From Propionibacteriaceae bacterium (GTDB lineage Bacteria > Actinomycetota > Actinomycetes > Propionibacteriales > Propionibacteriaceae), in NCBI GenBank assembly GCA_031256725.1, contig JAIRQE010000011.1, positions 6,547 to 38,546 of the forward strand: a stretch of DNA of 32,000 bases. Reading direction: 5' to 3'. Position numbers and translations under genes: made by a program. Under the pieces are notes generated by a model that did no database searches, was not told where the DNA came from, and saw only the letters and a program-made list of their open reading frames with translations. Positions within the stretch are counted from its first letter, which is position 1, and the number at the start of each line of letters is the position of its first letter. Positions 12,543-32,000 of the stretch are shown one piece after another.

Positions 12543-13508
12543 ATGGCGCCAGCAGTTTCGGAAAGAATCCTCAATCTGATGATAGCCCTGCTCGTTACCA
12601 AGAGACTCATTTCTCGCAGGGAGATCTTCCAACGTGTCTCAGGATATCTCGCTATTGATCAAGACCGTGATGTGATCACAGAGGACCCAGCTGCTGATCG
12701 GAAATTCCAAAGGGATCTTGAGAATCTCCAACAGATGGGAATTGAGGTCATCAAAGGTACGATCCAGGATGCCAATCAAGACGTGGGTGGGTACAGAATC
12801 GATCCAGGATCCTTCTATCTGCCAGACATCCACCTCACACCGCGAGAAGCCATGGTGGCAGCAATGGCCTCATCGGCATGGTCGGAAGCAAGCCTCGCCT
12901 CAGGGGTGGGGACTGCTGTTAGGAAACTGCATACCCTAGGGGAGGAAACCAGTGGAGGCCAGTCCTATTTCCTGACACCACGACTGAGGGCGGCTGAGCC
13001 TGGGCTAGCCCAACTGTGGGAGGGGTTCACAACACAGTCGACGGTGGAGTTCACCTACAACTCACGGGTACGACGGGTCAACATCTGGAGGATGATTGGA
13101 CGATCGGGTGCGTGGTACGTCTTAGGTGAGAGTGTGGGTGAGGGGCCGAAGATTTTCAAGGTCGCCCGAATTGAGGACACTACACGTGTACTGCCCACTC
13201 CCCAAGGTTATGAAACCCCCGATCAAGCAGTGATTTCTCGTGAAGCTGAGTCCTTGAATCCGCCGCCGGATTCTTCGGTTCTGGTCGCTATTCGAGTCTC
13301 GACCACAGGAGTACTACGCAAACGGGGGACACCTGTGGACAGTGATGGTCCTGAGGGGTTCGATGTGTACAGGATTCCCTATGCCCGTGTCGATGAAATT
13401 GTCTTCGCGATCTGCGCCTCAGGCCCAGATGTCCTAGTTCTGGAGGAAGGGGAGGTACGTGATCGTGTCATAGCTCAACTCCAATTCATTGCAGGAGGTC
13501 AGTCATGA
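12543..13508 (+). CDS. pafB: PafB-like HTH/WYL-domain transcriptional regulator
   Basis: The N-terminal wHTH is ERILNLMIALLVTKRLISRREIFQRVSGY. FQRDLENLQQMGIEVI, GYRIDPGSFYLPDIHLTPREA and the WYL-type GAWYVLGES closely parallel mycobacterial PafB as I remember it. The SD GGGAGGG precedes the ATG. Confidence 0.75.
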   Translation: MAPAVSERILNLMIALLVTKRLISRREIFQRVSGYLAIDQDRDVITEDPAADRKFQRDLENLQQMGIEVIKGTIQDANQDVGGYRIDPGSFYLPDIHLTPREAMVAAMASSAWSEASLASGVGTAVRKLHTLGEETSGGQSYFLTPRLRAAEPGLAQLWEGFTTQSTVEFTYNSRVRRVNIWRMIGRSGAWYVLGESVGEGPKIFKVARIEDTTRVLPTPQGYETPDQAVISREAESLNPPPDSSVLVAIRVSTTGVLRKRGTPVDSDGPEGFDVYRIPYARVDEIVFAICASGPDVLVLEEGEVRDRVIAQLQFIAGGQS

Positions 13509-14449
13509 GCCGATCCATTGAACAGGTGGCGCGCCTGCTTGTTGAGATCCCTTATATCCAAGCCCGCCCAGGAGTGAAACTATCCCAGATTGCCCGTACC
13601 CTGTCGATCACGGAGGCTCAGGTGGTAGCCGACCTTGAAGTCGCTCGATGGTGTGGGTTGCCTGGAGGGTACTCTGAGGAGCTTATCAACATCGACTATG
13701 ACATTGTTCACGGTGAGAAGGCTGTCCACATTCACAATCCCACAGGCCTTGATCGACCCATGAAGCTCACCATTGTTGAGGCTGCAAGTCTGCGCTTGGC
13801 ACTGATGGCCTTAAGGGATCTCGTCGAAAAAGACCTCGTGGGTACCATTGACTCTCTTCTGGAGAAGATACTCCTTCCAGCCCATATGAGTGTGGATCTT
13901 CACCTATCAGGAGGAGACCAAGATATCCGTGACCGTGTACAACATGCCATTCACAATGCTGAACGCCTGGAATTGGCCTATGCAGGTTCCAAGAGTGGGA
14001 AGAATAGTACCCCTGTGATCGACCCCGTGGGTGTACGCGTCCTTGAAGGGAAGTCCTATCTTGTTGCCTATCGCGTCGATAGTGATCCAGGGTGGCGCCA
14101 CTATCGCTTCGACCGTATTCTTGAGGCTCGCCCCACGGGTGAGGCAACCTTTGGACATGGGGATCCACCATCCCCAGATGATTGGGCTAAGAATCTTGCT
14201 TCCAGCGAATCAGCTACCCTGGTCGTCACCAAAGAAGGCAGATGGATTCAGGAGTACTATCCCACAATCTCAGTTGTTGACTGTGACAATGATCTTACCC
14301 GTATCACGATCCCAGTCATGGAACAGGCATGGCTTTTGAGGCTCATCCTTGGGTTGGGGGAACGTATCACATGTGTTGAACCTTCGATCTATCGTGATGC
14401 GGCTCGCAGTCTAGCTCAACAGGCACTCGACGCCTATGATGACTTGTGA
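13505..14449 (+). CDS. pafC: PafC-like HTH/WYL-domain transcriptional regulator
   Basis: VARLLVEIPYIQARPGVKLSQIARTLSITEAQVVADLEVARWCGLPG and DRPMKLTIVEAASLRLAL parallel PafC. The WYL-type motif is KSYLVAYR. It has an ATGA overlap with pafB and the SD AGGAGG. Confidence 0.75.
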   Translation: MSRSIEQVARLLVEIPYIQARPGVKLSQIARTLSITEAQVVADLEVARWCGLPGGYSEELINIDYDIVHGEKAVHIHNPTGLDRPMKLTIVEAASLRLALMALRDLVEKDLVGTIDSLLEKILLPAHMSVDLHLSGGDQDIRDRVQHAIHNAERLELAYAGSKSGKNSTPVIDPVGVRVLEGKSYLVAYRVDSDPGWRHYRFDRILEARPTGEATFGHGDPPSPDDWAKNLASSESATLVVTKEGRWIQEYYPTISVVDCDNDLTRITIPVMEQAWLLRLILGLGERITCVEPSIYRDAARSLAQQALDAYDDL

Positions 14450-23512: not shown

Positions 23513-24301
23513 ATGAGTAAATTTCGGTGGCTTAACCAGGAAACTCTTAACCAACTCCCATTTTCTTTGCCTTGGAAAATTGAGGTTGTTGAGCAGACTG
23601 GTTCCACCAACGCCGATCTTGCGGCTCGGGTACGCGCGGGGGGCTGCCCCGATTACACAGTGTTGGTGACCACCGATCAGTGTGGCGGACGCGGTCGGCT
23701 AGCGCGTACCTGGACTGCACCTGCGGATACTGCTGTGGCAATGTCGATGGCCGTACCACTGAAGCCCTTTGAAGGACACTGGGGTTTGCTGCCCTTGGTG
23801 ATGGGGAGTGCAGTAGCGGGGGCCCTGTTTGACTGGGGGGTTAAAGCGAAGCTGAAATGGCCGAACGATGTGTATATCGGGGACAAGAAAGTTTGCGGGA
23901 TTCTGGGGGAGTTTGTGGGAGGTACCGCCGTTATCGGGTGTGGAATCAATGTCGCACAGACCCAGGAAACCATTGGGTACGAAACTGCCACATCACTAGC
24001 GATGACTGGGGTTCATGTCACCCATGATGAAGTCGTCTCCCGTGTACTGGATCATTTCGGGCGAGCCCTGGATGTCATGACCACCGAAGATGGACCAGCT
24101 TTGCTGAGGGACTTTTATCGAGCATCCAGTATGACCCTGGGTCAACAGGTCAGGATCTATCATGATGAGGATTCCTATGTTGAAGGCCTCGCCATAGATA
24201 TTTCCGATGATGGCCAACTTCTAATCGACATAGATGGAGAGGTACAGTCCTTTGCCAGCGGAGACGTGTACCATCTTCGTTCGCAAGACAGGGGTGACTG
24301 A
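23513..24301 (+). CDS. birA: Biotin-[acetyl-CoA-carboxylase] ligase (no N-terminal HTH visible)
   Basis: It has the biotin-binding loop QCGGRGRLARTWTAP, KWPNDVYIGDKKVCGILGE, and a C-terminal SH3-like tail. I prefer ATG 23513 (MSKFRWLNQ...) over the track start at 23453. Confidence 0.85.
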   Translation: MSKFRWLNQETLNQLPFSLPWKIEVVEQTGSTNADLAARVRAGGCPDYTVLVTTDQCGGRGRLARTWTAPADTAVAMSMAVPLKPFEGHWGLLPLVMGSAVAGALFDWGVKAKLKWPNDVYIGDKKVCGILGEFVGGTAVIGCGINVAQTQETIGYETATSLAMTGVHVTHDEVVSRVLDHFGRALDVMTTEDGPALLRDFYRASSMTLGQQVRIYHDEDSYVEGLAIDISDDGQLLIDIDGEVQSFASGDVYHLRSQDRGD

Positions 24302-24395
24302 GTGGCGAGCACCATCCACAATGCGAAATTAAAAAGAAATCTGAGGTGGAAATCTTAAATAGTGAGATCTTTACGCGAGAGTGTCCTATCCGTGA

Positions 24396-24424
24396 TTGAC
24401 GGCAAGGCAAATATATGCAAGAAT
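24396..24424 (+). promoter_or_regulatory. Candidate promoter for the rhs gene
   Basis: TTGACG (24396-24401), then 17 nt, then AAGAAT (24419-24424), in an AT-rich 155-bp spacer. A short palindrome atgca-agaa-tgcat (24415-24428) overlaps the -10. The SD AGGGAG (24447-52) precedes ATG 24457. This is a sequence-pattern guess only. Confidence 0.25.
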
Positions 24425-24456
24425 GCATGACATCAGAATGATTTCAAGGGAGTGTC

Positions 24457-27400
24457 ATGTCTGGATTTTCGCGGCCTTGGTTGGCGCCTGCTGTTATTGT
24501 TGCTTTTTCGGTGTTTATTACGATGTCACCAGTATCGAGTAATTGGAGTGCTCGTGCTGATAATGAGGTGGTAGAGGAGATTCCGGTAGTCCCCGCAAAT
24601 GATGATTCCTTTACTCCTGTTCCATTGGAAGATATATCTTCAGACAACGGGCCAGGTTCTGAAGATACAAACGATTTGCCTGGAGTCGAGGAATCTGAGG
24701 ACTCGGTAGACCAGGTGAGTGATTTTAACCCAGTTTCTGTCGTAGAGGAGATATTGCCTGAGTCTGCAGTTGTACCCTCCAGTGACTCGCTGGTTCTGGA
24801 TCCTAATAGTTATGAATCCGTATCGGGAGCGGTGGATGCAACCTTTGCCCCCTTGCCCTCACCGGAAAACCCTGAGGAAGTTGGCTTACTATCGGGTGCT
24901 TGGATGGATTTTGAGCCAGAGCCCATAGTTCAGCCTGCTAGTGAACCTGATGTTTTGATTTGGCAGCGCGCAGGTGGATCATCGTTGGTGTCGTTGGAGT
25001 CTCCAAGTGATGGACCACAAGCGAGCGATGCCCCAGTTGGTCTAGTTGTGTCCTCGTGGCCTGAGATGAATAACAAGCAAGTGACTGACAATGAGGTTCT
25101 TCATCCTTCTTTGAGGGAGAGGATAGTAATTTCAGCACTCTATGCCTATATAGCCATCATGAAGTGGGTTATCAGAGTAGTTGGTTCGTCCAAGCCAAGT
25201 CTCAAGGGCATTGCGATTCTTCCCGTTGAGCCTTTAGCGGAGTTAATTGATCGAGTAAAATCGTTACAGTCTGTTCAGTTGAAACCAGAGGGTTATGCGA
25301 TAAATGTAGGGCTGACTCCAGTTCTGGTGGCTTCAGTTGTCAATGATGTTGAGGGGGTTTTATATGCATATCAATTCACTGTGTGTCCTGGGAATACTAG
25401 TCGTGGATTAGGGGCTTGTGAACAATCTATAAAACCGGTGGCTCAATCAGGGTGGACGGGTCCGGAGTGGAGGATTCCAGAGGGAGTTTTGAGTCCTGAT
25501 TCTTATTACACGTGGACGGTGTCGGTGGGTGAAGTTTCTTCTTCTGGGGTCCCCGAAGCAGCGTCTGCCTATAATGCTGTTCGAGCATTCTCGACAGGTG
25601 GCCATTTCATTGAACCTCCCATGGCCGCAGCGCCATCAGCGCCATCGCTTACACTTCAAAGTCCATCGGATGGTGCTATTCTCTCAACAGTCAAGCCAAC
25701 GTTGGCTTTTAGTTACCTGACTCCTGCGTCGGGGACTTCCTTCAGTTATTCCATCTATGTAGATGCACTTGATAAGTCCTTGGCATGGCAGACTCCACCA
25801 ATGACCTCCAATAAGTCGTCGGTATCATATACATTACCTAATTTGCTGTTCTGGAATCGAGGTTATTCATGGCAAATTTCTGCGGCATATTGGGATCTCA
25901 AACCTAATATTATGTATGTTGCACTTACGCCAAAAAGAACTTTTTACCCAATTGTCCCCGTTGCTTCTGAGGCGAAAATTGTTTCAGATCGATTGGCTCC
26001 AATGGATCATTCAGTGAGTATAGCATCAGGTGCCTACAGTATTTCAGTATCCGATGCGAGTATTCCGATTCCTGGTGGATCACTTGCAGTAGTGCGTTCT
26101 TACCGTAGTGTCGATACGGCAGTCCGAGTTCTCGGATCTGGCTGGGCATCAATTCTTGATATGTCTATTTCTACTCCAGCTGGAGCAGCTGGGCCGATTG
26201 TGCGTTTCGCGGATGGTCATGCAGAGAGCTTCGGTACGAACCCTAATGGAAGTTACGCTAGCGCTCCAGGAAACTTGGGAACGACTCTTGTGAAAGCTTC
26301 CGCATCTACATGGCAGGTAGTAGATGATAGTGGGTTTGTGTATACCTTGGATTCTAAGGGTTTAGTTTCAATGCAGGGTGGTGAGGGAGCTAAGGTCACG
26401 GTTGCCCGTAATAGCACTGGCCAAATAACTGCTATTAAAGACGTCCTATCGAATCGAGCACTGTCTATGACTTGGACTGGTTCACATGTCACTAAAATTG
26501 CTGCCACTCCTGCCCCATCAGGGGTGTCCGCTGTATGGACATATCAATATTCTGGTGACAGGTTAGTGAAGGCCTGTTCTCCTTATAGTGGAACGACAAC
26601 ACGATGTACTTCGTATGTGTATGGCAGTTCATCCATGCCCAATGCAATCACGCAAATCACTGAGGCAAATGGTGCAATAACCAAGATTTCATACGTAAAT
26701 GGTGGTGTTGTCACGTCGGTCACGGATGCGGTCAACTCAGTATGGTCCTTCTCGCGTAAGTCGGTCACGGGCAGTACTGAGATCACGGCAACTGCTCCTG
26801 GGTCTATTAAAACTGTTTATATCATTGATTCAATGTCTCGCATTACGCGATTAGTCAATGCGCTTGGTGGGGTGCAAACGTGGACATATGACAACGGTGG
26901 GCGGTTGGCAAAATACTCTGATCCTGATGGTGAATTGGCCATGACATTCGATGATGAGGGACGAGTTTTGTCGAGAATGGTCTGGCGAGGAAGTATTACA
27001 TATAGCAAGCAGTACTACACGTACTGGACAACAAATGATGCAAAAAAGGGCAAGTTGCGCACTATTTCCGATCCAAGGAGTTCATTGGGGGTCGCCCCAT
27101 TGGTTTCTTATGCTTATGACAGCAAAGGGCGTGTAACTCAGGCTATTTTGGGGCCAGAAGCAACCGGGGTGAGAACGAAATATGCTTATACTACGGGCAC
27201 TGAGAGCGCAGTGGGTGGCGGAGTTACTCCCGCCGGGTTACTTGCAAGTGTTACTGATCCGATGGGTGCTGTGACGAAGTGGGCTTATGCCTCAAATGGT
27301 TTGGTTCGGACGCAGACAAGTCCCAGTGGTTTGGTTACCTCTTATGCCTATGACTCTCTTGGGCGTTTGGCTTCTGAGTCTGCATCTGTGAGCGGGGTTG

Positions 27401-30400
27401 AGCGAAAGAACTCTTATACTTATTATGATAATGGTTTATCTAGAGCGGTTACTGGTCCCTCTGTCCGTGATTCGGTGACTGGGTCCACTCGTCAAGGCAC
27501 TGTTATTACAGAACTTGATGCGGTTAATCTTCCAGTGAGAATTACCACGAAGGATTTGATGGCTGGTTCTTCTCAAACTGTAGCCTTGACTTATGACAAA
27601 CTGGGGCATATCACAAAGGTAGTGGGGCCTGATGGTGTCACTCAATCGGTCTATGCTTACGACGCTAGGGGTAACCTGACTTCAGAAACAGATGCTCGAG
27701 GGGCGGTAACAAAACACACCTATGATGTGCTGGGACGTGTAATCAAGAGTGTGGCGAGTGGTTACAAGGATCCCAATGTAACTACTACGCGAGACGTAAC
27801 ATTGGCTACCTATACCTGGACTGCGTCGGGCAGAGTAGCTACTGTAAGTGATGTTAATGGTTTAACCCGGGCTTATTCCTATACTCGTGATGGCCTAATT
27901 ACTTCAGTAGTAGCAAAGGGTGTTGATAAGGGTAAAGACCTTGTTGAGATGAAAACCTCGTATGATGCGATGGGGAATCCTATCATGTCATCATATAACA
28001 ATTCTACTAGCACATGGGTAGGAACCTATGATTCACTTGGACAGTTGTCAACATCTGTTGTCAATGGAGCGTTGACTGAGTATTCCTATGATGCTGCTGG
28101 TCGCATGACCATGTCTCGGTTGCGAACTCTTCTAAAAATCGATTCAACTACTACTTTTACTTATGACAAAGCTGGCCGGGTTACTGCAGTAACAGAGGGG
28201 AGTCCACAACGAATTACACGGTACGCGTATAACGAAGCTGGGGAAGTTACGGGCATTACCGACCCTCGCAGTTCGACGGCAGGTGCTGTGGCATGGACTA
28301 CAAATTACACATACGATGCTACTGGGCGTGTAGTCCAAGTGGTTGCACCGTCAGTGACTCTTGAGGGGAAGACGCAAAGACCAACTACGAAAACAGGATA
28401 TGATGTCTTTGGTAGGCCAGTGAAACAGGTTGCTCCCAACGGTGCTATTACCACTGCTACTTATGACGCTGCTGGTAGGGTCACCAAGATTGTGGAGCCT
28501 AGTGTAGTGCTTTCGACGGGTAAAGCACATACCCCAACTTCATCGTGGACGTACAACGGCGCTGGGGATGTGGTGAGTGAAACTCGACCAGATGGGTTGA
28601 AGTCGACTTTTACCTATGACAATTGGGGGCGTTTAGTTAAGGAAGTAGCGCCCGCATCTACCAGTGGTGGATCTACTCGAGTATCAACATGGGCGTATTC
28701 CAATGGAGGGATTCCTGTGTCGATGATTGATCCGCAAGGACGAAAAGTAACTCAGACTGTAAATAATCTGGGGCAAATCATCTCCCAGTCAGTCTATGAA
28801 GGATCCACCGCACTTACCTCAATATATCAGTATAATATTAGTGGAAACCTCATTAAAGTGACAGACCCTCTGGGTAAGTCTCTGACGATTGGTTACGACG
28901 CTAACCAACAGGTTACGAGTGTGAAGGACGCTGATGGTGTTACTAGTGCGTACTCGTACGATGTTGCTGGACGAACAACCAAGGTCGAATCAGGGGGGCA
29001 GACGGCAGTCATGGAGTACAACGGCCTGGGGCATATGGTGGCCATGTCGCATGTGACGGCTGGTGGATTGGTGACTATGGATACAACCAAATACACTTAC
29101 GATGTAGTTGGTAATGTTCTAAGTGTTGCAGGTCCTTTGGGTACGGGTTATTCCAGCACATGGGATGCTCTGAATAACATGCGAAGCTATACCGAGGGTG
29201 CTGCCAAAACCCAACTGGATTACGATTTATTGGGAAATCTAGTTAAAATGGTTGATCCTAGAGGTAATACAACCACAATGGGGTACAACGCCAGACGGCA
29301 GTTGATCAGCGTAGTGGAACCATCAACAACGTCTCATCCCAACGCAGCAGATAGAACATGGACCAATGCTTACGATGTGATGGGTCAAGCTGTGCAGTCT
29401 ATTGCACCTGGGGCGGTGAAAACGACCCGAACATTCAACAGCGATGGCCAGATTTTAACAGAATCAGCATCTGGAGGAGGAGTAGTATCTGCTAGTCGTT
29501 CCTTTACTTATGACGCTACTGGTCTTTTGACTGCTGAAGCTACACCCAAAGGCAATCAAACCTTTGCCTACAACGGGCGCGGTCTTATGAAGAGTTCAGC
29601 TGGACCTCTAGGGACCTCCTCATTTACGTACGATAATGCTGGTCGAGTCACATCTATTAATGATCCTTCAGGTACGACAGCATTAACATGGACAGCTGCT
29701 GGTCGGCTGGCCTCAGCCACAACAAGTGGAGTTAAGAGAGAATTCACTTATAACGGAAGCGGACAGCTAACGGCGCTTTCTCACCCGGGAGGAAAAACTA
29801 TTTACTCCTATGATGGAGCGGGGCGTTTGAGCGGGGAGACCGTGACCAAAGGACTTTTGTCTGTGGTCTACGGATGGACCGGAACCTATGATCAGGCGGG
29901 GCGTCTAGTTAAACAAGAGGTAAAACCCGCTTCAGTGAAAGGCGCAGGAGTAACCTCATATACATACAATACGAGTTCTCGGTTAACTGGATGGACTGAT
30001 CCAAGTGGAGGCAAGCACTCCTTTGCCTATGATTTGGCGGGAAATCTCACTAATAATGATGGATTAGCTGCAACATATGATCAACGCAATCGACTATCTA
30101 AGATGGGGACCACGAGCTACACCTGGAGTCCTCGCGGAACACAAACTCAAGCAGGGAATGTTGGTTATTCCTGGGATGGTTTTGATCGCTTAACTGCGGC
30201 TGGATCAAGTAAATACACATACGACAGTCTCGACCGTTTGGTCTCGTTGGACAATTCTTCCTTTACGTATGCAGGAGCCAACTTGGAACCAGCAGGTGAT
30301 GGTTCGTCCAAATGGACTCGGGTTGGAGACCAGTTGCTGGCTGTTAATCAGAAGCCGGTTGTCCAGGATCATCATGGGGATGTTCGTGCCACAATTGGTG

Positions 30401-31848
30401 GTGACGGAAGTATTGAGTCCAGTGCATCATGGAAACCCTATGGTTCCATACTCGAAGGTTCCACCACATCGGCTCTTGGTTTTCAAGGGCAGTGGACGTC
30501 TGCCACTTCTCTAGTTCACATGCAAGCTCGTTGGTATGATTCCACAACTGGCTCTTTCCTGTCCCGAGATCAAGCAACGCTTCCCGTTACTCAGGCGAAC
30601 AGGTACCAATACGCAGGTGGTAACCCAATTAACAACGCTGATCCAACGGGACAAACGGTATGTGCGTTAGCGGTTCCTTCCCTTCCGACATTCACGTTGT
30701 GTGTGGCCGCATCGGTTGGATCAATTGCCGCAGGATCAAGTGCCAGTGGCGCTGTGAGTATGAGCATCGCATCTGGGACTGCTGCGGGTACTGTTAGTGC
30801 TTCAATAGCAGGAGGTGCTGCTGTTGCTGGCACTACAGCTGGTGGAAGCCTCGCACTCGGAGCAGTTGGTGCAGGGGTTGGTGTAGGGCTATTCCTTGGC
30901 TGGGGTATTTATGCAAGTTATTTAACAGCTGAGATTTTGCGGGATGGCACAGATCTGTTCTACGAGACTCTTGAGTCGCCTTTATATCGAGACGGAGCCG
31001 ATGGAACCTATAGGTATCCTTATTCACCGCAGCGCTACGGATCCTATTTTGACTATCCACAATATCAAGCCTCTATTCGTTTCGCGGCTGAGATATATAC
31101 AAATAGTCAAGCGATTATAAAACAACTGAAAGCTATGATAGCTCGTCTTGCAGATCAGGCTATCTCTGAGATGTATCGCCAGGCTTCGTACTACGTACAG
31201 CAGGTGGTCGCACAAGCAATGAGTAGTATTGCGGCGCAATTAGAAAGACAGATATGGGAATGGGAGCAAGAGTGGAATAAGTATTTTCTTGACCAAGCTA
31301 TGTCTAAGTGGAAATTTGAGTGGGACGATCTTTCTCGCCCAATCGGGGTCTTGCCTATAGACCTTCCACGATTATGCGAATCATCTTCCTCAGCCGAGAC
31401 TTGTAAAGGCTCTGCATTGGATCACGCCCTGGGTGACATGGGTAAACCGGTTGATCTGATTACTTCATTTGCACCCATCGCGTCTTTGCCTGATGATCCA
31501 TCTCCGGGATCGAATTCTGGGAAGGGCGAGTCCCAAACGGATCAGGCTCCTGCCGAAGCTGCTAGAACCGCAGCACAAAACCCATCTAGTGACAGTGATA
31601 CCGCGCCAGCAATTCCGCGCACTAATAAAGAGGCAACGGAAGCAGCCAAGTCGCTTGGTTTCTGGAAGCTGAGAGGACCAGACAGTCACGGGCAGGCGAT
31701 TTTCACTAATGGAAAGGTGGTTATAAGTCTTGATAAAGACAGACATAATGGAGGTGTATGGAAAATGGCCAAAACAAGAGAGGATTTGAAAAGTAAGTCA
31801 ACACGTATGGGTACCTATGATGGTGAATTGAATAGGATTGGTGACTAA
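24457..31848 (+). CDS. RHS/YD-repeat polymorphic toxin with N-terminal signal peptide and long variable C-terminal region
   Basis: 2,463 aa. The signal-like N-terminus is MSGFSRPWLAPAVIVAFSVFITMSPVSSNWSARA. The RHS entry region is IPGGSLAVVRSYRSVD...LGSGWASILD. About 4 kb of degenerate YD repeats follow (YTYD..GR, Y.YD..G type). The core end is RWYDSTTGSFLSRD...NRYQYAGGNPINNADPTGQ (aa 2025-2066, nt 30529-30654). Then come 397 aa of non-repeat sequence. Confidence 0.9.
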   Translation: MSGFSRPWLAPAVIVAFSVFITMSPVSSNWSARADNEVVEEIPVVPANDDSFTPVPLEDISSDNGPGSEDTNDLPGVEESEDSVDQVSDFNPVSVVEEILPESAVVPSSDSLVLDPNSYESVSGAVDATFAPLPSPENPEEVGLLSGAWMDFEPEPIVQPASEPDVLIWQRAGGSSLVSLESPSDGPQASDAPVGLVVSSWPEMNNKQVTDNEVLHPSLRERIVISALYAYIAIMKWVIRVVGSSKPSLKGIAILPVEPLAELIDRVKSLQSVQLKPEGYAINVGLTPVLVASVVNDVEGVLYAYQFTVCPGNTSRGLGACEQSIKPVAQSGWTGPEWRIPEGVLSPDSYYTWTVSVGEVSSSGVPEAASAYNAVRAFSTGGHFIEPPMAAAPSAPSLTLQSPSDGAILSTVKPTLAFSYLTPASGTSFSYSIYVDALDKSLAWQTPPMTSNKSSVSYTLPNLLFWNRGYSWQISAAYWDLKPNIMYVALTPKRTFYPIVPVASEAKIVSDRLAPMDHSVSIASGAYSISVSDASIPIPGGSLAVVRSYRSVDTAVRVLGSGWASILDMSISTPAGAAGPIVRFADGHAESFGTNPNGSYASAPGNLGTTLVKASASTWQVVDDSGFVYTLDSKGLVSMQGGEGAKVTVARNSTGQITAIKDVLSNRALSMTWTGSHVTKIAATPAPSGVSAVWTYQYSGDRLVKACSPYSGTTTRCTSYVYGSSSMPNAITQITEANGAITKISYVNGGVVTSVTDAVNSVWSFSRKSVTGSTEITATAPGSIKTVYIIDSMSRITRLVNALGGVQTWTYDNGGRLAKYSDPDGELAMTFDDEGRVLSRMVWRGSITYSKQYYTYWTTNDAKKGKLRTISDPRSSLGVAPLVSYAYDSKGRVTQAILGPEATGVRTKYAYTTGTESAVGGGVTPAGLLASVTDPMGAVTKWAYASNGLVRTQTSPSGLVTSYAYDSLGRLASESASVSGVERKNSYTYYDNGLSRAVTGPSVRDSVTGSTRQGTVITELDAVNLPVRITTKDLMAGSSQTVALTYDKLGHITKVVGPDGVTQSVYAYDARGNLTSETDARGAVTKHTYDVLGRVIKSVASGYKDPNVTTTRDVTLATYTWTASGRVATVSDVNGLTRAYSYTRDGLITSVVAKGVDKGKDLVEMKTSYDAMGNPIMSSYNNSTSTWVGTYDSLGQLSTSVVNGALTEYSYDAAGRMTMSRLRTLLKIDSTTTFTYDKAGRVTAVTEGSPQRITRYAYNEAGEVTGITDPRSSTAGAVAWTTNYTYDATGRVVQVVAPSVTLEGKTQRPTTKTGYDVFGRPVKQVAPNGAITTATYDAAGRVTKIVEPSVVLSTGKAHTPTSSWTYNGAGDVVSETRPDGLKSTFTYDNWGRLVKEVAPASTSGGSTRVSTWAYSNGGIPVSMIDPQGRKVTQTVNNLGQIISQSVYEGSTALTSIYQYNISGNLIKVTDPLGKSLTIGYDANQQVTSVKDADGVTSAYSYDVAGRTTKVESGGQTAVMEYNGLGHMVAMSHVTAGGLVTMDTTKYTYDVVGNVLSVAGPLGTGYSSTWDALNNMRSYTEGAAKTQLDYDLLGNLVKMVDPRGNTTTMGYNARRQLISVVEPSTTSHPNAADRTWTNAYDVMGQAVQSIAPGAVKTTRTFNSDGQILTESASGGGVVSASRSFTYDATGLLTAEATPKGNQTFAYNGRGLMKSSAGPLGTSSFTYDNAGRVTSINDPSGTTALTWTAAGRLASATTSGVKREFTYNGSGQLTALSHPGGKTIYSYDGAGRLSGETVTKGLLSVVYGWTGTYDQAGRLVKQEVKPASVKGAGVTSYTYNTSSRLTGWTDPSGGKHSFAYDLAGNLTNNDGLAATYDQRNRLSKMGTTSYTWSPRGTQTQAGNVGYSWDGFDRLTAAGSSKYTYDSLDRLVSLDNSSFTYAGANLEPAGDGSSKWTRVGDQLLAVNQKPVVQDHHGDVRATIGGDGSIESSASWKPYGSILEGSTTSALGFQGQWTSATSLVHMQARWYDSTTGSFLSRDQATLPVTQANRYQYAGGNPINNADPTGQTVCALAVPSLPTFTLCVAASVGSIAAGSSASGAVSMSIASGTAAGTVSASIAGGAAVAGTTAGGSLALGAVGAGVGVGLFLGWGIYASYLTAEILRDGTDLFYETLESPLYRDGADGTYRYPYSPQRYGSYFDYPQYQASIRFAAEIYTNSQAIIKQLKAMIARLADQAISEMYRQASYYVQQVVAQAMSSIAAQLERQIWEWEQEWNKYFLDQAMSKWKFEWDDLSRPIGVLPIDLPRLCESSSSAETCKGSALDHALGDMGKPVDLITSFAPIASLPDDPSPGSNSGKGESQTDQAPAEAARTAAQNPSSDSDTAPAIPRTNKEATEAAKSLGFWKLRGPDSHGQAIFTNGKVVISLDKDRHNGGVWKMAKTREDLKSKSTRMGTYDGELNRIGD

Positions 31849-31851
31849 GTC

Positions 31852-32000
31852 ATGGACTTTGAGGATCGATGGGCGGTGTGGCTGCCTGGATTGACGGCGG
31901 CTCAGGCGGATGAGATTGTTGAACTGTCGCAGGAATGGCCTAATATCTTTGTGTCTGATACAGATAGTCCGCAGGATTTCTTGTTTATTCCATGGGGGTA
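31852..32000 (+). CDS. Putative cognate immunity protein (5' part only, truncated by window end)
   Basis: The ATG lies 3 nt after the rhs stop, on the same strand. The ORF is open to the window edge (MDFEDRWAVWLPGLTAAQADEIVELSQEWPNIFVSDTDSPQDFLFIPWG...). The call rests on the canonical toxin-immunity position. I recognise no family. Confidence 0.45.
   Translation, partial: MDFEDRWAVWLPGLTAAQADEIVELSQEWPNIFVSDTDSPQDFLFIPWG

Follow-up and report, generated by a model that had tools for sequence, protein, structure and literature searches.

The window analysed here is a stretch of 32,000 nucleotides (nt) from a Propionibacteriaceae bacterium (GenBank assembly GCA_031256725.1, contig JAIRQE010000011.1, positions 6,547 to 38,546 of the forward strand). 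Its final large open reading frame (ORF) encodes an RHS polymorphic toxin of 2463 amino acids (aa), the window protein, for which an exact match was found in MDR0488506.1, a singleton cluster from a Propionibacteriaceae metagenome-assembled genome (MAG), on a contig of 38.5 kb. The C-terminal tail of this protein, with a candidate membrane-insertion or entry module ahead of an RNase domain, was analysed together with that of its one relative, P0002, a 2245-aa RHS protein from a Micropruina MAG. The features of the gene and of the ORF next to it are the following.

24457 to 31848, + strand: RHS polymorphic toxin ORF, 2463 aa, MDR0488506.1 (Pfam and NCBIfam matches; identical in Logan contig L003)
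24457 to 24558, + strand: probable Sec signal peptide, aa 1-34, with the end ...SARA/DN (read from the sequence; uncharged run aa 7-32)
26008 to 30654, + strand: RHS/YD shell, from DUF6531 (aa 518-592) to the core end at aa 2066; 1549 aa, 163 kDa (Pfam)
30433 to 30654, + strand: RHS repeat-associated core with R2025/D2038/D2062, ending in DPTGQ, predicted cleavage after Q2066 (TIGR03696)
30655 to 30714, + strand: hydrophobic first part of the cargo, aa 2067-2086, with the Cys pair C2069/C2082 (from the sequence; Cys pair in P0002 at the equivalent position)
30715 to 30840, + strand: uncharged Ala/Ser/Gly/Thr low-complexity spacer, aa 2087-2128 (from the sequence; coil in both AlphaFold2 (AF2) models)
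30841 to 30930, + strand: glycine-zipper-type helix, aa 2129-2158, A2136xxxG2140xxxG2144xxxG2148, marginally hydrophobic (low-confidence AF2 helix; analogue in P0002)
30931 to 31068, + strand: acidic Tyr/Pro-rich irregular segment, aa 2159-2204, with 8 Tyr in 29 residues (from the sequence)
31069 to 31323, + strand: long amphipathic helical region with a Trp-rich end, aa 2205-2289 (hydrophobic moment (muH); AF2 helices)
31324 to 31509, + strand: Cys-loop pre-toxin module, aa 2290-2351 (conserved with the Micropruina homologue)
31510 to 31626, + strand: acidic Pro/Ser/Ala-rich linker, aa 2352-2390 (from the sequence)
31627 to 31845, + strand: Ntox21 domain (CdiA-CT ECL-like RNase) with SxDxxxH, RxGT and RxxD motifs (Pfam; PDB 4NTQ_A)
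31852 to 32000, + strand: candidate immunity ORF, 5' part of about 49 codons, soluble and acidic (ATG at 31852; without family match)

The sequence and the reading frame were considered sound, since a second assembly, Logan contig L003 (SRR14710887), was 100% identical to window positions 11578-31824 and the G+C content at third codon positions (GC3) was uniform along the RHS gene, body and tail alike. On the same grounds, and with a continuous ORF spanning both the RHS core and Ntox21, a frameshift artefact was rejected. Contig L003 ends at window position 31824, 7 codons short of the RHS stop and at the toxin/immunity junction, a break which could reflect strain heterogeneity or repeats just downstream.

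The RHS_repeat family of Pfam matched the shell with an expectation value (E) of 3.7e-116 over 23 stretches, and TIGR03696 (Rhs_assc_core, NCBIfam) matched aa 1993-2066 (E 6.7e-18, 65 bits compared with a cut-off of 32.5). The DPTGQ core end was located at aa 2062-2066 (nt 30640-30654), followed by a tail of 397 aa, 42.1 kDa and pI 5.1; the coordinates and lengths in a preliminary description, made from the letters of the window, were thus correct. Residues R2025, D2038 and D2062 align with the core residues of SGS1, SGS4 and Rhs proteins, and by analogy with Tse5 and SGS1 they would be the aspartyl autoprotease residues. With an intact RHS core and the three catalytic residues (R/D/D) in place, the protein would be expected to release its tail as a cleaved cargo. 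Among PDB entries, the end of the core matched best to the mosquito proteins SGS4 (E 4e-7) and SGS1 (E 2e-6). All 8 Cys residues of the protein lie in four close pairs, which is consistent with a disulfide-bonded extracytoplasmic protein.

The terminal domain was identified as Ntox21 (PF15526; aa 2396-2463, E 1.6e-21, 76.9 bits compared with a gathering score of 25), and it aligned with PDB entry 4NTQ chain A (E 1.8e-8). Ntox21 is the family of the Enterobacter cloacae CdiA C-terminal toxin (CdiA-CT), with the motifs [DS]xDxxxH, RxG[ST] and RxxD (PMC3482391), which in the window protein were placed at SLDKDRH 2424-2430, RMGT 2450-2453 and RIGD 2460-2463. Because the terminal domain is an RNase of the Ntox21/CdiA-CT ECL type, the tail cargo must reach the cytoplasm. 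The candidate immunity ORF begins 3 nt past the TAA stop of the toxin and runs beyond the end of the window; its visible part of about 49 residues is acidic and soluble, in keeping with an immunity protein, and gave no family match in Pfam. The cognate immunity genes of Ntox21 toxins are of the Imm41 or barstar-like kind.

From aa 2063 to 2158 the chain runs for 96 residues without D, E, K, R or H. With independent and identically distributed residues about 4e-6 such runs would be expected per protein, and the sole other uncharged run of at least 25 residues is the signal peptide. The composition of the first block of the tail, block (i), had been described correctly (A22 G17 S13 V9 L8 T7 I4 among the 90 residues of aa 2069-2158), and the block was found to be tripartite, with a Cys-pair segment, a low-complexity spacer and a zipper helix. 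The glycine-zipper spacing also claimed for it was retained in part: a real zipper, A2136/G2140/G2144/G2148, lies in aa 2129-2158, whereas the spacing over the block is mostly an effect of composition. When compared with composition-preserving shuffles, GxxxG occurred 5 times versus 2.9 (p 0.12), [GAS]xxxGxxxG 4 times versus 1.5 (p 0.06) and small-xxx-small 35 times versus 27.9 (p 0.003), the last being the only significant spacing. The zipper helix, of about 27-30 aa, terminates in a W/Y belt (W2149, Y2152, Y2155). A single 19-mer of block (i) (aa 2131-2149) reached a Kyte-Doolittle value of 1.68, and the best apparent free energy of insertion (dG_app) of the helix on the Hessa scale was +2.3 kcal/mol, a marginal hydrophobicity; the scale values are reportedly those of Hessa et al. 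2005. The only tandem repeat in block (i) was a 2-copy repeat of 24 nt at 30865-30888 (GVGAG codons), and on this ground the block was rejected as a DNA repeat array. Sortase (LPxTG), lipobox and GlyGly-CTERM-type signals in aa 2067-2090 were rejected on reading the sequence, which does not match these motifs and is not C-terminal.

For the part that follows, block (ii), the description as Tyr/Gln/Trp-rich and helical was borne out: its 135 residues include Y14, Q14 and W5, AF2 gave it helix propensity, and it is strongly amphipathic. In the helical region of about 85 aa the mean muH was 0.39, compared with 0.21 ± 0.04 in shuffled sequences, and 0 of 1000 shuffles reached the observed value; its Trp-rich end carries 5 Trp in 27 residues. 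The AF2 models of the tail showed helix propensity at about aa 2130-2172 and 2200-2290 and mostly coil at aa 2067-2128. The Cys-loop module behind the helices was about 48% identical to P0002 over a 95-column alignment, with the invariant runs PIGVLPxDxPRLC, C.G.ALD and DLITSFxPxASLPxDPxP, and it is the only part of the tail that is conserved in sequence.

In an exhaustive search with phmmer, which covered 1.84 billion cluster representatives, the only matches were the protein itself and P0002, the match to the latter being limited to aa 2290-2380. A scan of genome contigs with the Cys-loop alignment gave only the Micropruina locus (L001) and a weak match in a Guyparkeria contig (L002; 19 residues, tblastn E 1e-4), which was judged spurious, and the corresponding scan of metagenome contigs gave no confirmed match. 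No match to aa 2067-2395 was found in Pfam, NCBIfam, PHROGs or the PDB, in agreement with the preliminary description, which could assign no known domain to the region: none of these four collections held a soluble domain for it. Neither Pfam nor NCBIfam matched PT-TG, PT-HINT or PT-VENN to aa 2067-2395 or to the tail of P0002; PT-VENN and other pre-toxin Pfam families were absent at E up to 1, as was the string VENN from the tail. A PDB sequence search of the tail, at E up to 10, returned only 4NTQ and noise, with no similarity to Tse5-CT or to a solved pore-former. Profile searches of PHROGs and the PDB with the Cys-loop alignment gave noise or nothing, and word-index protein searches gave nothing, either with aa 2067-2395, where low-complexity words swamped the search (8000 candidates), or with the Cys-loop alignment.

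The RHS bodies of the window protein and P0002 were 48% identical over 1872 aa. The P0002 tail, of 385 aa, has the same part order as that of the window protein: DPTGQ, a Cys pair, a Gly/Thr/Val spacer of about 40 aa, a Gly-zipper helix (TLVGGGLGGLIGGAIGFGIGLWIV, dG_app +1.65), an irregular segment, Ala-rich helices, the Cys-loop module, a Pro-rich linker and, instead of Ntox21, an HNH toxin. Both Cys pairs of the tail are positionally conserved. Since P0002 has the same part order with an HNH end, the tail region travels with the carrier and not with one toxin, and the comparison of the two sequences speaks for a delivery or pre-toxin region common to both rather than for an element specific to one toxin. 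What was observed directly comprises the architecture and composition, the amphipathicity, the identity of the toxin domain and the same part order in one relative with another toxin.

At the Micropruina locus an ORF with a DUF4265 match (L001 7311-7841) lies downstream of the RHS-HNH toxin, overlapping its end, and is likely the immunity gene. A long ORF about 4 kb further (L001 11325-12983) appeared transposase-like by eye. No membrane-protein ORF adjoining P0002 was seen at this locus.

Hydrophobic tails were also seen in other RHS proteins. Three Streptomyces RHS-core fragments (P0004, P0009 and P0010) have tails that open with Gly-rich hydrophobic stretches, followed in P0004 and P0010 by soluble immunity-like genes, and the Streptomyces fragments at L006 5001-7034 and L005 3316-4671 have in common the tail-start motif ..WE.(V/L)GWG.A....GGG. 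In L006, which carries P0004, an ORF of 88 aa weakly resembled the end of Endonuclea_NS_2 (E 0.009, sub-threshold) and was followed by a SUKH/SMI1_KNR4 gene; this locus is probably a decayed toxin cassette. The Streptomyces fragments lend weak support to a recurrence of a hydrophobic pre-toxin segment in actinobacterial RHS toxins. In a metagenomic RHS protein, P0015, split into two ORFs (L004 3234-7362 and 7344-9365), the sole cargo is a hydrophobic tail of 163 aa rich in Gly, Ala, Val, Ser and Thr, after which come two to three copies of a small ORF with two transmembrane (TM) segments, one copy apparently frameshifted. The tail and the small ORFs are probably a membrane toxin and its membrane immunity genes.

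Judged by analogy of parts, the closest known layout is that of SGS1. In its cryo-electron microscopy structure about 230 aa of predicted TM helices come after the autoprotease site DPDGQ and lie inside the RHS shell, partly folded against hydrophobic patches of the shell, and the chain exits through a mid-shell opening, beyond which lie a furin site and the Tox-SGS domain (PMC9935623). SGS1 and SGS4 (PDB 8FJP and 9ON3) have the same R/D/D autoprotease site as the window protein, theirs ending in DPDGQ/E, and SGS1 likewise has a hydrophobic helical moiety directly past this site and then a linker, with a processing site in SGS1, and a toxin-type domain. However, SGS1 is eukaryotic (acquired from bacteria), and its six predicted TM helices, which span about 230 aa, are combined with a furin site and Tox-SGS. 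In the window protein a single marginal helix is combined with amphipathic helices, a Cys-loop module and an RNase, and no similarity was found beyond about 10 residues after DPxGQ.

The shell of Tse5 chaperones a membrane-inserting C-terminal fragment (CT) of 16 kDa in a cavity of about 32,000 Å3 (PMC10684867). The likeness to the window protein would lie in an RHS shell acting as a chaperone and a C-terminal fragment released by an aspartyl autoprotease. In Pseudomonas aeruginosa Tse5, from a diderm and with a type VI secretion system (T6SS) for its delivery, the CT is itself the toxin and no enzymatic domain stands behind it; the window protein differs by its cargo of 42 kDa, its 1549-aa shell and its predicted Sec export, and shows no sequence similarity to Tse5. 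TcB-TcC cocoons of about 250 kDa hold a cargo of 30-35 kDa, and Tc cocoons need a minimum cargo of about 20 kDa to function (PMC6868009). The window cargo thus exceeds those of both Tse5 and TcB-TcC, while its shell, of 163 kDa, stands between the two. A crude scaling from the Tse5 cavity, with a Tse5 shell length of about 1120 aa that is our own estimate from the cleavage sites, would give about 44,000-52,000 Å3 for the 1549-aa shell, compared with about 51,000 Å3 needed by the whole tail and about 29,000 Å3 by blocks (i) and (ii). This suggests that full enclosure of the 42-kDa tail would be tight and that of blocks (i) and (ii), 24 kDa, comfortable. The preliminary description had doubted that so large and partly hydrophobic a cargo fits inside an RHS shell; as to hydrophobicity the doubt is answered by the solved precedent of SGS1 (PMC9935623).

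Entry devices ahead of nucleases are also known outside RHS proteins. The glycine-zipper N-terminus of Agrobacterium tumefaciens Tde1 is required for membrane permeabilisation and DNase translocation (PMC10240207), and this GxxxG-rich segment of marginal TM character, placed upstream of the nuclease domain, would have its counterpart in the zipper helix of the window protein. However, Tde1 is a non-RHS, T6SS-delivered protein of 278 aa which uses the adaptor Tap1 and not a cocoon, has no helical or Cys-loop part and shows no homology. CdiA-CTs join a variable entry domain to a toxin (PMC11630599). That of E. cloacae (4NTQ) has a terminal domain homologous to that of the window protein and an entry domain ahead of the nuclease. 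CdiA differs in being a filament of the type V secretion system of diderms, with a VENN demarcation that is absent here and entry domains that hijack inner-membrane proteins, and no similarity of the CdiA-CT to window aa 2067-2390 was found.

Bacillus subtilis WapA is a Sec-dependent, contact-dependent RHS/YD toxin of a monoderm, with a signal peptide, a C-terminal RNase and a downstream immunity gene. The monoderm host, the long RHS region and the C-terminal RNase are features that the window protein has in common with it, as is, probably, the signal peptide. To our knowledge, WapA-CTs are short, of about 100-150 aa, without a long hydrophobic or helical pre-toxin region. WapA is a delivered tRNase (PMC5566331).

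By analogy with these systems, the 397-aa tail is with intermediate confidence taken as a cargo that a WapA-like RHS toxin, exported by Sec from a monoderm actinobacterium, releases by autoproteolysis. That aa 2067-2351 would be a membrane-insertion or entry module, stored in the shell and delivering the nuclease, is put forward with moderate confidence. The cargo consists, in order, of a Cys pair, an uncharged spacer, the zipper helix, a Tyr-rich segment and amphipathic, Trp-tipped helices, followed by the Cys-loop module, an acidic Pro-rich tether and the Ntox21 RNase. The marginal hydrophobicity of the module would allow its passage through the Sec channel of the producer without anchoring, and the RHS shell would keep aa 2067-2351 soluble, as for Tse5-CT and the helices of SGS1. 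Once freed at a target cell, the module may insert into or perturb the cytoplasmic membrane and aid the tethered RNase across. The Cys-loop module may be constrained by something common to both proteins, such as an exit or docking site on the shell or a processing step that frees the toxin. Storage in the shell, membrane insertion, translocation and processing are steps that we infer from the known systems.

The delivery-module reading was favoured because the cargo, as an RNase, has to get into the cytoplasm, because two unrelated nucleases stand behind the same layout, because no membrane-protein ORF follows the Micropruina gene and the visible downstream ORF of the window is soluble, and because a Sec substrate could carry a marginal helix unanchored. 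The uncharged run, far beyond chance, the amphipathic helices and the Tyr/Trp-rich flanks support an entry module, as do the precedents of SGS1, Tse5, Tde1 and CdiA-CT.

Several points weigh against this reading. The zipper spacing is not significantly above composition, and the zipper helix is so marginally hydrophobic that a standard TM predictor could well call none. The similarity of blocks (i) and (ii) to P0002 was undetectable (BLASTP E 0.65), the evidence for a common architecture consists of two sequences and of composition, and the Cys-loop module was present in just two proteins of the 1.84 billion, with no covariation or breadth. The AF2 models had predicted local distance difference test (pLDDT) values of 44.7 (single sequence) and 32.2 (two-sequence alignment), too low for a fold. 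In addition, the window ends about 49 codons into the downstream ORF, and a membrane immunity gene could lie beyond its end. The support for an entry module comes from sequence and analogy. The membrane-insertion or translocation device, one possibility raised in the preliminary description, is supported in part: the same part order stands before a different toxin (HNH) in P0002, but the helix is marginal and no homology was detectable between blocks (i) and (ii) of the two proteins.

What is new here is an RHS cargo in which a known RNase is combined with a conserved Cys-loop module and with a hydrophobic and amphipathic region compatible with a cocoon. As a tentative and rather unlikely extension of the delivery-module reading, aa 2067-2351 might represent a class, not described before, of translocation domains in monoderm RHS toxins that are stored in the cocoon and insert by themselves. 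The hydrophobic and amphipathic part, of about 24 kDa, would then be held in the shell, with the disulfide-loop module at the exit or at a release or processing site and the nuclease beyond it as in SGS1; contact with a target would lead to insertion, and the nuclease would be carried across without a secretion needle.

Among the alternatives, the uncharged stretch and the helices may be an inert spacer that fills or lines the cocoon or tethers the toxin, with no membrane activity. Composition accounts for the zipper motifs, the hydrophobicity is marginal, blocks (i) and (ii) show no sequence conservation and AF2 gave mostly coil for aa 2067-2128; given the minimum cargo of about 20 kDa of Tc cocoons, a filler is conceivable for a large shell. 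This explanation is nevertheless considered unlikely, since the charge-free run, the Gly-rich helix and the aromatic belt return in P0002 although the sequences have diverged completely, since the helices have a strongly amphipathic character, and since ordinary flexible linkers, such as aa 2352-2390, are polar and charged.

The cargo could also be a dual one, in which the hydrophobic block, either by itself or together with the helices, forms pores or depolarises membranes as an autonomous toxin similar to Tse5-CT or EsxX, upstream of the RNase. Purely hydrophobic RHS cargos do exist, as in Tse5 and in P0015 with its repeated small two-TM ORFs (L004), membrane-depolarising glycine-zipper toxins are known (PMC11630599), and the Tde1 N-terminus is itself bacteriostatic (PMC10240207). 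A second toxin is nevertheless regarded as quite improbable in the window protein: the same arrangement stands before two different nucleases, no membrane-protein ORF adjoins the Micropruina homologue and the visible start of the first ORF downstream in the window is soluble, and there is one marginal helix only, with no sequence similarity to solved pore-formers in the PDB search.

An anchor on the producer side, in which the block stops transfer during Sec export and leaves the RHS part on the surface and the toxin in the cytoplasm with its immunity protein, would suit a long hydrophobic stretch in a Sec substrate and would account for a soluble immunity protein meeting the toxin, but it is very improbable, as dG_app is positive (+2.3 kcal/mol), the flank past the helix is acidic and not positive-inside, the block has a Cys pair on either side, the shell would be cut off from such an anchor by autoproteolysis at DPTGQ, and the cargo of known RHS systems is enclosed in the shell.

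How Gram-positive, Sec-exported RHS/WapA-type toxins pass their nucleases across the cytoplasmic membrane of the target is not understood, and the window protein and its Micropruina relative provide a defined candidate entry module, aa 2067-2351, with a conserved Cys-loop island of about 60 residues. If the delivery-module reading is true, the SGS1-type arrangement, with shell-chaperoned hydrophobic helices and the toxin beyond, would extend to bacteria. It would also bear on the cargo-size limits of RHS cocoons, which are relevant to engineered delivery vehicles. Should the region be no more than a spacer, the protein would be an ordinary polymorphic toxin with a long linker.

In the N-terminal part of the window protein, the signal peptide is followed by a long acidic low-complexity region rich in Pro, Ser, Glu and Asp (aa 35-215, window 24559-25100), which is not in the annotated protein of the Micropruina homologue. 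Upstream of DUF6531 there are two tandem domains of about 115 aa (aa 270-508, window about 25264-25980), with a Cys pair at 310/321 and the common pattern P.DGA...PTL...Y.Y.F.V...W...VP...Y.W.V. They are kept in the Micropruina protein, gave no Pfam family match, and may be immunoglobulin-like adhesion or wall-binding domains.

The RHS gene is flanked by housekeeping genes (helicase, hisF, HIT, ilvBNC, maf and birA). Its GC content (window 24001-32000) was 47-51%, with a GC3 of about 0.40, compared with 50-57% for window 1001-24000; the genes just upstream of it had 52-57% and the first kb of the window 47.7%. The lower GC content of the RHS gene, together with its position immediately behind birA and maf, points to a toxin island acquired by horizontal transfer. 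Further upstream, at window 12543-14449, two adjacent ORFs with WYL-domain matches were read in the identical L003 locus; the match of the first was weak, and the second also matched HTH_PafC and WCX, as in PafBC-like regulators, consistent with an actinobacterial genome. These ORFs were followed by a DAGK/YegS-type kinase and then by a HelY-type helicase (DEAD, Helicase_C, DSHCT).

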